Notes under the pieces: generated by a model
Seen by the model: the letters and a program-made list of their open reading frames with translations, nothing else
Databases searched by the model: none
Told to the model about the DNA's origin: nothing
Program-made: the position numbers and the translations under genes
Assembly (NCBI GenBank): GCA_024679065.1
Contig: JAGIQG010000009.1
Location: 44,516,001 to 44,580,000, forward strand
Length of the DNA stretch: 64,000 bases
Reading direction: 5' to 3'
From: Sphyrna mokarran
Taxonomy: Eukaryota
Part shown: piece by piece, positions 32,321 to 39,822 of the stretch
How positions within the stretch are numbered: position 1 is the stretch's first letter
How the letters are laid out: the number at the start of each line of letters is the position of its first letter

Positions 32321-33975
32321 AGGAGCCCTGCACACAGCTATGGAAAAGACAAATTTGAAGCAGTCGCCTTCAGCCAGAAGTGCTGAGTGGACAATCCATC
32401 TCAACTTCCTTCGACAGTCCCCAGCACCACAGATGTCTTCCGCTAATTCAGTTCATTCCATGTGCTGTCAAAAACAAGTTGAAAGCACTGGATGTTGCAA
32501 AGGCTGTGGATCCTGGCAGTAGAACTGAAGACTTGTGCTCCAGAACTTACCTTTGCCCTAGTCAAGCTGTTCCTTTAGAGCTACAACACAGGCATCTACC
32601 TGGCAGTGTGGAAAATTGCGTATGTCCTGTACGTAGAAAACAGGACAAATCCAACCTGGCCAATGATCGTCCCATCAATGGACTCTCGATCAGCAGCAAA
32701 GTGATGGAAGGAGTCATCAGCAGTATTATTAAGTGGCACTTACTCAACAATAACCCATTCATGGATGCTCAGTTTGGGTTTTGCCATGGTCACTCAGGGC
32801 AAGACCTCATTATAGCTTTGTTCAAAGGAGTTGTATGCCAGAGGTAAGGTGAGACTGCCAGCCCTTGATGTCAGGCAGCAACTGAAGAATATGGCATCAA
32901 AGAGCCCTTGCAAAACTGGAGTCAATGGGAATCAGGAAGAAAACCCTCCACTGATTGGAGTCATACCTGACAAAGAGGAAGTTGGTTGTGGATGTTGGAA
33001 GTCAATCTTTTCAGCTCCAGGACATCACTGCAAGAGTTTCTCAGGTTAATGTTCATCTTCAGCTGCTTCATCAATGATCTTCCCTCCATCATAAGTTCAG
33101 AAGTGCAAATGTTCGCTGATGATTGCACAATGCTCAATATCATTTATAACTCCTCCAATACTGAGCCAGTCCATGTCCAAATGCAGCAAGACCTGGAAAA
33201 GTGGCAAGTGACATTCGTGCCACACAAGAGCCAAGCAATGATCATCTCCAACAAGAGAAGGTTTAACTATCGCCCTTTGACATTCAACGGCACTTCCATC
33301 ACTGAATCCCTTCATAACGTTACCCAGAATGTCACCATTGACCAGAGACTAGCCATATAAAGCCCTGTGGCTACCTGGGCAGGTCAAAGGCTGGGATTTC
33401 TGTGACAATTAACTCACCTCTTTATCCCCACAAAGTCTGTTCACCATCTACAAGGTACAAATAAGGAGTGCAATGGAATACTCTCCATGTGCCTGGATAA
33501 GTGCAGCTCCAACTCAGGAAGCTTGACACCATCTGGAACAAATCAATGCTGTTGATTGCTACCCTTTCCACAAACATTCAATCTCTTCACCACTGACGAA
33601 CAGCGGCAGCTATGTGTAGCACGTACAAGGTGCGCTACAGGGACTCACCAAGATTCCTTAGTTAGCAACTGCCAACCAATGACCACTACCATCTGAAAGG
33701 ACAAAAACAGTAAGGACAAAATACCTGGAAACGGCACCTCCCAGCAATTCCCTCCCAAGTCACTCACCCTTCTGATTTGGAAATATATCACATTCCTTCA
33801 TGTCACTGGGTTTAAATACTGGAACTCTTTCAATAACGGCACTGTATGTACTTCTGCCTCAGCAACTGCAGTTATTCAAGAAGCCAGCTCTCTCTACCTT
33901 CTGAAGGGCAACTATGGATGGGCAATAAATGCTGGCCTAGCCAGCAACACCCACATCCCATAAATAAAAGAAATA
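32320..33975 (+). mobile_element. Degraded CR1-group LINE (RT domain and 3' tail)
   Basis: KQDKSNLANDRPI...SKVMEGVI...DAQFGF, FSCFINDLPS...MFADDCT; tail gggcaataaatgctggcctagccagcaacacccacatccca. Confidence 0.9.
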
Positions 33976-34466: not shown

Positions 34467-34640
34467 AGAATCGTAGAAAGGATCTCTACAGTGCAGAAGG
34501 AGACCATTCGGCCTATCGAGTCTGCACTGATAACAATCCCATCTAAGCCCTATCCCCGCATATTTACCCAACTAATCCCTGACACTAAGGATCAATTTAG
34601 CATGGCCATTCAACCTAACCCACATATTTTTGGACTTGGC
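34467..34640 (-). mobile_element. HE1-like SINE 3' fragment, tail B
   Basis: ctacagtgcagaaggagaccattcggcctatcgagtctgcac is the reverse complement of tail B. Confidence 0.8.
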
Positions 34641-35439
34641 AGCATAATAATTTGTTTAAACTTTAATCCTTAAACAAATTATTGTGTTGCTAATGTTATC
34701 CCAGCCATGATTGACTGACATTGCAAAGAACACAGGAATCAGATGCAGTACCTTCCAGGTTGTATCAATCCAGGTAGTGCAATTAGTAGTCAAACAGTTG
34801 GTGGATGTCAAATGGCTATTTTTAAGAGGTCTTATTGACCTCATGTAACCTTCAGAATGCACTAATTTGATAACACTCTTGTTTAGCAGTGTACGTAAGG
34901 TTTACATACAGTTGTCTGGTATTTGATACATGGCCACTTAATAGCAGTCAGTTGTAATAAATAGGCTTCATGGTAACATAGCTTCTCAATGATGAAATAA
35001 CTAACATTGTAAAATCTTGTTACAAATCATTAGTTGCTGAATGATAGTGAGTGATCTTGAGCAATATTATTTAGCCAGTTGGATAGTTAACAAAGCCATG
35101 GGGGAATTGGTCGTAAAAAGAGAAAGCCCATATTATAGGTCTTCACCAAGGGGAAAAGGGAGAGGTGATGGGCTACGTCAAAATATATCTGATTAGACAT
35201 CATCAAATTTGCATTTTAGAAGCACTAAATTGGGAGAGGAAGAGATGGTTGAAGGAAATGAGAAATTTCTTTGAGATTTGGAAGAGTGTAATAAATGAAC
35301 AAAGCAGTAACGAAAGAACAAGGTAAAGAAAATGTTTGAGCAGCTAGAAAATTAACAGGGAAGGATGACAGGGAAAATTCAAAAGAATTAATGTAAGAGT
35401 CATGTGGATGTGTCAAAAAGAATCACCAAGTGTAGGAAT

Positions 35440-36269: not shown

Positions 36270-36443
36270 CTGGAATTTTCCAGTTAGCTTCTAGCTCCCT
36301 ACAGGCAGCTGGGACAGTTTAGCAAACGGCCAGCATTTCAGGCTGACTTAGAAGCCATTTCATTCCTGCCTGGGTTCAACAGCAGCTACAGATTGCCCTG
36401 TACAGGGATTCTTGTGGCCTGGCTGAGAAAGGCCATTTCTTAT

Positions 36444-37521
36444 AACGGAGGGAAAAACATTCCCAGTGCCACCATCATCCTAATGGCCACCTTTGTGTGC
36501 AGCTGCATCAAGCTGTGCGTAGATCCTCAGTACACTAACAGCAAGTGCCACTACTTTTTGAGGTTCTACCTGTCCCGAGTGTTGTGGGGGATGGGTCTGG
36601 CCACACTGCTGTGGAACGCTCCAAGTAGTTGGATCGTACCGCAACACCTGTCCTTCATGGAGAAATTTTTCCTCAAACACACCTTTGACCACGTGGTGAT
36701 TAAGCAGTGATCAGTGCGTAACGTCGCTGGGGCCCTGAGAGAGAAGGAGATGGCAGATCCTGTTGGATTGTTCCCTGAGCAGACTATCAGTATCATCTGG
36801 CAGAATGCCTCATCACTAGAACCAAGCATCAAGATCTGGCTTGGCTGGTGATGAGAACGGCACTCCCCGTCAGGTCCTTTATGCACGCTCGAGGTCTCAA
36901 CGTCACCACATACTGTCTTCAAATTGGCAGCGGGGCTGATGAGACGGTCGCACACCTCCTTGTGGAATGTGCCTTTGCAAAGAAGGTCTGGAGTGAGATG
37001 CAGTGGTATTGTCGAGGTTAGTCCCAAGCAGCTCAGTGACATAGGACTCTGTGTTCTATGGGTTGTTTCTGGGGACGCACACTGAGACAAATATCAGCTG
37101 CTGCTGGAGGATCATCAAGTCGGTGAAGGATGCACTTGGTCCACCTGAAACTTGCTGATCTTCCAGTTAAAGGAAATATTCTCAACCAAATGTTGCAGAC
37201 TGGCGCATTCCAAGGTCCAGGACTACGTGCTGAGGGACGCGCTGAAGCTTGGGGCAGTCGGCACAATGGGGAAAGACAACACTGTAAGGGAACTGCAGAA
37301 TACCCTTGGCCAGCGTAAGTGTGTGCCAATCTGACAAATAATGACACACAGTAAATTTTGAAGCATGTATATAATTTAAAATTTTGAAATGTAATGACTG
37401 TAATTTGTATACTATTGTAAAGATGTTTTTATTCTGTACTGTTTGCAATTTTTAGATACGTAAGTTTGCAATAGTTTAATTGAAATTTTTACGAATAAAG
37501 TATATTTTTGAAATAAAAAAA
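36444..37521 (+). mobile_element. 5'-truncated Tx1-clade (L1 superfamily) non-LTR retrotransposon
   Basis: GGKNIPSATIILMATFVCSCIKLCVDPQYTNSKCHYFLRFYLS; degenerate CCHC finger YCLQIGSGADETVAHLLVECAFAKKVW (~36911-36991); CCRLAHSKVQDYVLRDALKLG; AT-rich 3'UTR, AATAAA and A tail. Confidence 0.85.
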
Positions 37522-37529
37522 TTCTTATT

Positions 37530-37568
37530 ATCGCTTCTCAGCCTTTGAGCTAAGATCAAGTGTAGTAT
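37530..37568 (+). pseudogene. U2 snRNA 5' fragment (nt 1-39)
   Basis: atcgcttctcagcctttgagctaagatcaagtgtagtat vs vertebrate U2 ATCGCTTCTCGGCCTTTTGGCTAAGATCAAGTGTAGTAT = 36/39; includes the branch-point recognition sequence GTAGTA; no Sm site or 3' stems. Confidence 0.93.
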
Positions 37569-37845
37569 AGACATGCTATACTTGGTTGATATCATTGGGT
37601 TACATTTTAGCTTCATTTGAAGCAATTTTTTCAAGCAGCATCTCGGCCTCTTGGCTAAGATGCAAATGAGATCAAGCCTTGGATGAGGAGCTATGCCTAC
37701 TCTAGTCAGCTTGGATCATGTAGATCAAGCCCAAGACAGGAGGTGAGAGCCCTGTCTTGTCAGCTTGGATCAGGAATGTCCCAACTTGTTGGGACTCTGA
37801 ATTAGATTTGATTGGATTGAATTGGAATAAAGTATAAAAAAAAAA
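37530..37845 (+). mobile_element. Candidate U2-headed SINE-like element, or U2-derived extended 3' tail of the Tx1
   Basis: Starts at U2 nt 1; second U2 fragment 37638-37661; three stem-loops 37670-37795; AATAAA at 37826 and A tail to 37845. Confidence 0.62.
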
Positions 37846-38424
37846 CCTAATTTTAAACAAAATAAATTTTAAAAAGAATCTGCTCCTGTCTTTAAGCTGG
37901 TAAGTCTCTGGCCTTAGAGCTTTGAGTATTTACCTGTCATCCTTATTTGGCAGCAGAAACACCCTTGGGCCACTAATTGGCCAATTTGGTGAAAACTATG
38001 GCTGTTTCTCACACATTGTGTGGGCTTCTGACCCCAATTTGAGCCTGACAGCAAGGTTACACACTCGGTGAGATTCTTGTCCCAGGATTCTCTATTAACC
38101 GGCTGCCAAGGCATTGTGCTGTAGGGGGTTTTGCTAACAATCCTGGGGATGCTCCACACTTGGGGGTTATAGTGGAGTTATATTATCTATAATTAATCAA
38201 CTGCATTAAAGATCCATGCTATGCCTGATTTGGTACTGTTCTCACTAACACTGAAACAACCTAATTCATATATGATTAGTGCACATTTTATAAAGAATTG
38301 CTGAATTGAAAGGTTGCTCACAAATGGTATTTTTATCTGTAGCCAATCACCTTTCAATGTCCTAAGTTTAGGTGAGAATTCCATGTGTTTTGTTATAGTG
38401 GAGAAAATGCTTGAATCTATCATC

Positions 38425-39822
38425 AGGGCTGAAATAGTGAGACAGCTGTGTTCATGGGAGACAGGTAATGTTTAATTAATTTACTGGAAGTCTTTGAGGA
38501 TATTACAAGTGCGATGAATGATGGGGAACCGGTGGATGTGATATATCTGGATTTCCAGAAGGCATTCAACAAGATGCCGCACAAAAGTCTGCTCCACAAG
38601 ATAAAGGTGCACAGCATTATGGGTAATTTATTAGTACAGATAGAGGATTAGTTAATTAATGGCAAGCAAAGCGTAGAAGGTAAATGGATGGTTTTCTGGT
38701 TGGTGATCAGTGACTATGCCTCACATAGGGATCAGTGTTGGGATCGCAATTGTTTACAATTTACATAGATGATTTGGAGTTGGGGACCAAATGAAGTGTA
38801 TCAAAATTCGCAAATGACACTAAGATAAGTAGTAGAGCAAAGTGTGCAGAGGATGTTGAAAGTTTGCAAAGGGATATAGATAGTTTAAGTGAATGGGTAA
38901 GGGTCTGGCAGATGGTGTACAATGTTGGTAAATATGAAGTTATTCATTTTGGTATGAAAAGCAGCAAAGTGGACTATTATTTAAATTGCAGCATGCTGCT
39001 GTGAAGAGGGATCTGAGTGTCCTTGTGTACGAATCGCAAGAAGTTGGTTTGCAGGTGCAGCAGGTAATTAAGAAGTCAAATGGAACTTTGTTCTTCATTG
39101 CCAGAGGAGTGGAATTTAAAAAGAGAAAGATTATATTGCAGCTGCATAAAGTGCTGGTGAGGCCACATCTGGAATCCTGTGTATTGTTTTGGTCTCCTTA
39201 CTTGAAAAAGGATGTACTGGCACTGGATGGAGCGCAGAGGAGATTCACTAGTTGATTCTGGAGTCGAGAGAGTTGTCTTATGAGGAGAGTCTAAGTATAA
39301 TCATAGAATAGAATCATAGAATCCCACAGTGCAGAAAGAGGCCATTCTGTCCATCAAGTCTGCACCAACCAGAATCCTGCCCAGGCATCAAGTAGATAGC
39401 GACTATTATCATTGAAATTTAGAAGAATAAGGGGGGACGTTATAGAAATTTTTAAAATGATGAAGGAAATGCATGAGAAAGAAGCAGGGAGTTGCTTCCA
39501 CTGATGGGTGAAACCAGGACTAGGGGACATGGCCTCAAAATAAGGGAAAGCAGATTTAGGACTGAATTGAGGAGGAACTTCTTCACCCAAAGGGTTGTGA
39601 ATCTATGGAATTCCCTGCCCAGTGAAGCCATTGAGGCTTCTTCATTGAATGTTTTTAAGGCAAAGATAGATAGGTTTTTGATCAGTAAAGGAATTAAGCG
39701 TTCCGGTGGCTGGATGGTTAAGTGGAACTGAGTCTACAAAAAGGTCAGGTATGATCTTATTGAATGGCAGAGCAGGCTCGAGGGGCCAGATGGCCTACTC
39801 CTGCTCCTAGTTTTTATGTTTG
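38425..39822 (+). mobile_element. Degraded CR1 LINE with a nested antisense SINE-tail insertion (39300-39389)
   Basis: VDVIYLDFQKAFNK, VRPHLESCVLFWSP, RTRGHGLKI...FFTQRVVNLWNSLP; insertion flanked by aagtata/aagtaga. Confidence 0.92.

Follow-up and report, generated by a model that had tools for sequence, protein, structure and literature searches.

The analysed stretch of Sphyrna mokarran DNA, here called the window, is 64,000 nucleotides long and contains a short element of 316 bp directly 3′ of a 5′-truncated fragment of a Tx1-type LINE. The window copy is one array of Tx1 fragment, duplicated target and short element, with the following features:

36437..36443, forward strand: likely 5′ copy of a 7-bp target-site duplication of the Tx1 fragment; the same 7-mer stands at 37522-37528, a match short enough to be possible by chance
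36444..37521, forward strand: decayed, 5′-truncated Tx1-type LINE with the end of ORF2, 3′ UTR, AATAAA, T run and A tail
36779-37018, forward strand: zf-RVT domain in the ORF2 end of this fragment (Pfam, E=1.6e-11)
37522..37529, forward strand: spacer of 8 bp; its first 7 bp agree with U2 nt 43-49 and likely form the 3′ copy of the target-site duplication
37530..37568, forward strand: U2 head, nt 1-39 (nt 1-40 family-wide, from column counts), ending at the published Keno/Utopia insertion site
37569..37637, forward strand: body part 1 with the diagnostic 17-mer (37609-37625) and a T6 run (37626-37631)
37638..37661, forward strand: further U2 piece (nt 4-27) within the element, probably an earlier head
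37662..37824, forward strand: body part 2 with short inverted repeats and a run of 5-nt repeats; no match to Tx1, Rfam families or tRNA
37825..37845, forward strand: polyadenylation signal (37826-37831) and A10 tail (37836-37845), read from the sequence; tail variants were counted

An earlier note on this DNA had described a unit of about 315 bp beginning at U2 nt 1, and BLAST against the genome's own U2 gene bears this out, 37530-37568 matching nt 1-39 at 36 of 39 positions. Its statement that the U2 similarity stops at nt 39 holds for the window copy, while across the family the match reaches nt 40 (29/54 copies at nt 40, 0/53 at nt 41). The second U2 piece was found again as nt 7-27 at 37641-37661 (20/21, BLAST), or 22/24 by eye for nt 4-27; it recurs in most copies of the short element. 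The element's own AATAAA and A tail are likewise present.

Two further points needed correction. The 12-mer at 37493-37504 in the Tx1 fragment is indeed identical to that at 37825-37836 in the short element, but it is not the Tx1 terminus, as the LINE runs on with a T run and a G before its A tail. The 8-bp gap behind this tail exists as described and is likely a target-site duplication, since seven of its bases also stand directly before the 5′ junction of the Tx1 fragment. The origin of this 7-mer is ambiguous because it equals U2 nt 43-49.

Elsewhere in the window, decayed RT-like reading frames of other LINEs lie at 32359-33360 and 38400-39730; by their motifs they are likely of the CR1/L2 type. 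An AT-rich inverted repeat at 34629-34705, with sub-threshold miRNA matches on both strands, is probably due to chance or the remnant of a small transposon.

The short family and its probable Tx1-type partner

Searching the genome with the unit yielded 3,144 first-look candidates, and all 40 that were scored match nearly the whole unit, the 39 places other than the window copy with 88-92% identity. The 17-mer from the body has 1,322 exact matches in the genome, compared to 0 for the reversed control; as it was counted exactly and the copies are 7-9% diverged, this number is a lower bound on the copy number. The 316-bp unit belongs to a family of short retroposons that are non-coding, headed by U2 nt 1-40, old and dispersed.

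For an unbiased sample, the first 30 matches along contig C1 were taken in order of position and gave 29 distinct copies. Their 5′ ends fall within U2 nt 1-11 in 21/29 and exactly on nt 1 in 5/29. Target-site duplications of their own, which the earlier note had raised, were found for a part of the copies: a score of at least 7 was reached by 10/59 copies and by 4/354 mismatched (null) pairs, while 49/59 copies are without a clear duplication. One locus lying at the same place as another (L157, L009) was left out of the counts of ends and duplications, and two interrupted copies (L151, L165) were left out of the alignment. Mean identity to the column majority was 93.3% for 30 top hits and 90.8% for 27 position-ordered copies. 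With 96.9% for the closest pair among 57 aligned copies, the family looks inactive in this assembly. Older variants (L025, L119, L137, L160, L195) are 69-81% identical to the window copy, and in some of them the head ends at U2 nt 36-37; judged by these differences, the family has several subfamilies.

Sequencing runs containing at least half of the sampled family words numbered 14, from 6 studies; without the best study, which is a possible source, family words remain in 5 studies with three other organism labels, so the family is probably common to related species. Six runs with word shares of 0.22-0.30 were not counted as evidence. No RNA run was among the runs found to contain family words.

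Local alignment of the body with five full-length Tx1 copies gave scores of 27-32 against shuffle maxima of 29-35, that is, no similarity, which rules out the body as an internally deleted Tx1. No Rfam family reached threshold in the body. Folding z-scores of -1.5 to -4.7 for the body in five copies are suggestive only, and consensus folding of 55 bodies, with 2 gappy rows left out, gave mostly one-sided changes and no convincing covariation.

The Tx1 fragment of the window also belongs to a numerous family: 2,609 first-look candidates were obtained, 40 were scored at 79-85% identity, and the terminal 16-mer has 1,018 exact matches (control: 11). When 20 long loci were followed upstream, 6 proved to contain nearly complete copies of about 5.3 kb; the window fragment is 79-81% identical to the full-length copies L133 and L125. 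ORF1 has a weak match to RBD_ZCCHC3 below the cut-off, while ORF2 contains RVT_1 (Pfam, E=2.5e-18) in addition to the zf-RVT domain seen in the window fragment. A decayed endonuclease piece has no Pfam match; the nearest RT homologues carry PF03372/PF14529. The best RT homologue among 120 listed of 1,720 is a ray protein with 81% identity, as would fit a cartilaginous fish. Most RT homologues among the matches listed carry AP-type endonuclease domains, and none of those 120 is named Keno or Tx1. We assume the Tx1 label from the architecture and the target.

The 5′ ends of the LINE vary. The full-length copies L133 and L137 start with U2 pieces, and L122 starts with a U1-like piece (Rfam, E=0.035) plus U2 nt 29-52. 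L124 and L129 have similar U1-like/U2 pieces by eye, L122 alone reaching an Rfam E-value; such 5′ ends are also those of crocodilian Tx1-Mar. The full-length copy L125 has no snRNA piece at its 5′ end. The 3′ UTR is present twice in many Tx1 copies (L081, L088, L095-L100, L113, L115, L118, L120), and in some of these U2 nt 38-60 separates the repeats.

The short element occurs mostly without this LINE. Within 1.5 kb, no Tx1 match was detected at 26/29 other top loci using the window fragment as query, and none at 27/30 position-ordered loci using two full-length Tx1 copies. Together with the 1,322 genome matches, these counts support one of the two readings offered earlier, that of an independent U2-headed SINE tied to a Tx1 family. 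At the remaining 3/30 loci, as in the window, a Tx1 of equal orientation ends immediately before the element. Genome-wide there are 13 exact pairs of a Tx1 end followed by the body, the window included, where 0.0075 are expected from the counts of the two motifs (1,322 for the body, 1,018 for the Tx1 end); such arrays are thus 1,700-fold above chance. The spacers differ from pair to pair and recur after the short-element tail in 8/13 pairs (null: 7/156), so the pairs are separate insertions and not a carried module. Regarding the order of insertion, no more than 1-2 of 10 pairs have a spacer that matches the 5′ flank of Tx1, the junctions being approximate.

Other combinations also occur. Tandems of two short elements were found 13 times (control: 0) and show both orders, with the spacer recurring after the second copy in 4/13 (null: 8/156) and before the first in 3/13 (null: 2/156); in one of them, L226, the same duplication stands before, between and after the copies. 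Mixed arrays (L137, L235, L238) and Tx1 pieces inside short copies (L043, L183) were detected as well. The ages of the families overlap, the Tx1 family showing a mean of 92.5% (30 top hits) on the scale on which the short family shows 93.3% and 90.8%.

A shared 3′ end, formerly brought forward as an argument for partnership, turned out to be weak evidence. The tail with GTATA after AATAAA, the form seen in the 12-mer, is present in 7/30 top hits and in 0/29 unbiased copies, and the body is without Tx1 similarity. What really links the families is a common choice of targets: U2 nt 37-40, and sites that are used again where copies of either family end. From the shared sites, the nesting and the age, we infer that the short element was very probably mobilised in trans by this Tx1.

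Copies inside U2 genes and the proposed source of transcripts

The genome's own U2 genes form a four-copy array on contig C949. A U2 search gave 125,365 first-look candidates, a rough figure that was not taken as a copy number. Keno elements belong to the Tx1 clade, are specific for U2 (PMC6136364, PMC4640811, PMC4494074) and have a published 3′ target of U2 from about nt 38-40 (PMC6136364, PMC4640811). A pattern of poly(A) signal followed by U2 nt 40-52 had 9 matches (control: 0), consisting of 4 Tx1 ends, 3 short-element ends and 2 unrelated places. Of the 6 matches of a second pattern (control: 0), one is an unrelated place and the other 5 are ends of short elements, 2 of which had already been matched by the first pattern. 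Some copies of the partner LINE are followed by the published Keno target (PMC6136364), as seen for the 4 Tx1 ends and for L086, L184 and L192. L086 consists of U2 nt 1-43, a truncated Tx1 and U2 nt 38-51. As in Keno, there are two ORFs with RT and zf-RVT. The partner LINE can thus be taken to work like Keno; it differs by lacking strict U2 specificity, as most copies are dispersed and the terminal motif is followed by U2-like sequence in only 3/29 copies (L031-L060), which indicates relaxed specificity. Most insertions of both families lie outside U2.

The loci L184 (506-1856), L192 (972-2150) and L086 share a further arrangement at dispersed sites: a Tx1 end, diverged U2 nt 38-186 (76-81%), a common spacer of about 200 bp, nearly intact U2 nt 1-45/52 and another Tx1 piece. 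This looks like read-through of a short-spacer U2 array of a kind not otherwise met in the genome searches. In the C949 array itself, decayed Tx1 pieces lie in the spacer of each unit of about 8 kb (G000:C949:17,325,895-17,357,942; L102-L105), and at about 17,393,460 U2 nt 46-191 comes after one more Tx1 end.

Copies of the short element inside U2 genes had been missed by the earlier note, and they bear on the transcription of the element. At the edge of the U2 array, L178 has a promoter-homologous flank, U2 nt 4-37, the whole body, an A tail, U2 nt 40-191 and a homologous 3′ flank. Its body is an older variant with 78% identity to the window copy, about 10 bp before its start are lacking, and its upstream region holds another SINE. 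L177 has a promoter related to that of L178, followed by U2 nt 1-39, the first 15 bases of a body of the younger type and then a Tx1 piece. For a third short copy of the array region, about 30 bp are similar to the promoters of L178 and L177 (scores 42 and 40; shuffle maxima 24 and 25). As a canonical U2 promoter this flank was rejected, because 21/200 shuffles reach the score and only the variant promoters match. In one dispersed copy, L201, U2 nt 38-48 is flanked by an A run on either side, and the duplication lies outside these runs. Read-through from a U2-resident source would leave such a 3′ transduction; this reading relies on L201 as the one clear copy. L204 has a U2-like target duplication.

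Transcription of the type of U2 gene hosting L178 is evident from 8 of the 16 non-array U2 loci (L067-L072, L074, L077), which are retrocopies with the 3′ flank of this gene type. These eight have neither promoter nor A tail, share about 40 nt of the flank of this variant gene type (seen in L066 and L178) and are likely copies of a 3′-extended pre-U2.

Because of the copies at the U2 site, L178 with its promoter and 3′ flank, and the transduction in L201, the source copies likely sat in U2 genes and used the U2 promoter. Our main reading, to which we assign a probability of about 0.62, is that the family was likely copied in trans by a Keno-like Tx1 and likely transcribed from such sources. 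The Tx1 endonuclease would place the short element into a U2 gene, where Pol II, starting at the U2 promoter, would make an RNA of U2 nt 1-40, body and AATAAA that becomes polyadenylated. Tx1 ORF2 would then reverse-transcribe this RNA at relaxed, A-starting sites, with U2-like sites and the 3′ junctions of earlier Tx1 or short copies as further places of insertion. Copies dispersed elsewhere would have no promoter and be inactive from the start, so that the family would rely on new insertions into U2 genes. A head reaching from U2 nt 1 to the Keno site would be explained most simply by co-transcription from the U2 promoter, which we consider somewhat better than an even bet. To a more far-reaching version we give about even odds: a promoter-less retroposon, independently arisen in cartilaginous fish, would live by Tx1-placed homing to U2 nt 37-40, with the Pol II promoter of U2 transcribing it and its own AATAAA turning the transcript into a polyadenylated LINE substrate.

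The strongest alternative keeps the same family and the same Tx1 partner, but a single template switch to U2 RNA would have supplied the head, source copies would have been transcribed from chance upstream Pol II promoters, and the U2-resident copies would have arrived later and been dead. This is the route proposed and argued for by Kojima for the crocodilian SINEU elements (PMC4494074). This route would fit the differing lengths of the U1-like and U2 pieces that begin Tx1 copies or precede some short copies (L122, L124, L185, L200), as expected from repeated template switching. It also agrees with the promoter searches of the genome, in which no intact young U2-resident source copy was found: 8 promoter-bearing loci were recognised among 40 scored of 600 candidates and then 6 among 6, and L178 and L177, both decayed, were the only ones carrying the short element. 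The U2-resident copies may accordingly be late insertions and not sources. However, heads do not end at scattered points but at the Keno site (nt 40; nt 37 for an older variant), the flanks of 59 copies have no common non-U2 5′ extension by eye, and L201 carries downstream U2 bases as a transduction. We therefore regard template switching as possible but clearly less probable than transcription from sources in U2 genes.

Mobilisation by another LINE, either a different Tx1- or L1-type family or CR1/L2, with hot spots as all that is shared with Tx1, would explain why body and tail have no homology to Tx1 beyond an AT-rich 12-mer, a comparison that covers this Tx1 family only. Both families, however, use the U2 nt 37-40 site and nest in each other, and their arrays exceed chance by the factor given above, which makes this an improbable solution. 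Still less credit is due to an ordinary Pol III SINE (SINE1/2/3) with an internal promoter and an incidental U2 head. The element is short, A-tailed and numerous, and motifs resembling a B box can be read in the body by eye. Yet 7SL-, tRNA- and 5S-derived heads are absent, no match to tRNA, 5S or 7SL was obtained and no tRNA was detected in the body, and at about 100 nt, 47/55 bodies contain a run of at least five T. Pol III transcription terminates at such a run, whose frequency argues against Pol III, while an AATAAA preceding the tail fits Pol II. Finally, the unit could be a 3′ module of U2 origin that travels with Tx1, or a chimeric U2 pseudogene formed once, both considered earlier. This agrees with the 3/30 copies placed directly behind a Tx1 end like the window copy and is refuted by at least 1,322 copies, by 27/30 position-ordered loci without Tx1 nearby and by spacers that vary between pairs and indicate separate duplications in 8/13.

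Comparison with known elements and significance

The closest described elements are SINEU-1, -2 and -3, which together with Tx1-Mar LINEs were reported only from crocodilians, where they target the DNA transposon Mariner-N4_AMi (Kojima 2015, PMC4494074); a 2017 review likewise lists SINEU for crocodilians only in the parts covered (PMC5381603). How they are transcribed was left open there, since U1 and U2 have no internal promoter (PMC4494074). Both the crocodilian elements and the short family have an snRNA-derived head (U1/U2), a non-coding length below 500 bp and an A tail, as well as an internal oligo-T, a second internal snRNA piece and tandem insertions. In both, a target preference is shared with Tx1 LINEs of the Keno-related group, whose members include partners with U1/U2 heads, and no 3′ body is shared with the LINE (PMC4494074).

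The short element thus has a head from U2 snRNA, 316 non-coding bp with a 3′ poly(A) tail, and an internal oligo-T without a tRNA, 5S or 7SL promoter head; it belongs to an amplified family with a common structure, not to a set of independent chimeras, and shares target preference and age with a Tx1 family. By these features it agrees with the SINEU class as described for crocodilians. The differences are a cartilaginous fish host in place of a crocodilian one, a head that stops at the Keno site, insertion of both partners into U2 instead of a Mariner-N4_AMi target, and copies that stand behind the promoter within U2 genes. Inspection of the flanks of short copies by eye revealed no shared transposon that would indicate a Mariner-N4-type preference.

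For a passenger in a host RNA gene, the nearest logic, as far as the source parts used here allow, is that of the R2 SIDEs, non-autonomous passengers of a site-specific LINE in 28S rRNA genes; R2 is co-transcribed with the host RNA gene (PMC3414825). SIDEs are internal deletions of their LINE (PMC3414825), whereas the body of the short element has no Tx1 similarity. The head of the element is the retained 5′ end of the host gene, and its copies are spread over the whole genome. U2 retropseudogenes and snRNA-LINE chimeras similarly start at U2 nt 1 and stop early, but they are independent events (PMC4494074), in contrast to more than 1,300 copies with one body and one junction.

Literature searches revealed no short non-autonomous U2-headed passenger of Keno and no snRNA-headed SINE from cartilaginous fish, in agreement with the earlier note, which knew of no elasmobranch example; these searches covered few subscription papers, and a Repbase/Dfam entry may exist. 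The parts covered of PMC7245038, PMC4758252 and PMC5499810 contain no shark case, and the terms snRNA and SINEU are absent from the main text of the last, which deals with SINEs of sharks and a chimaera.

The short family extends the SINEU class from crocodilians to cartilaginous fish and links SINEU-type heads directly to the U2 target of Keno. Candidate source loci with the U2 promoter attached make the question of SINEU transcription testable; as the family looks inactive in this assembly, evidence must come from relatives or from a reporter. If our reading is true, an snRNA transcription unit was made to yield a polyadenylated retroposon RNA, and the snRNA head of SINEU-type elements would be a remnant of the host gene. 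Borrowing of the U2 promoter would then explain how elements without a promoter of their own are transcribed.
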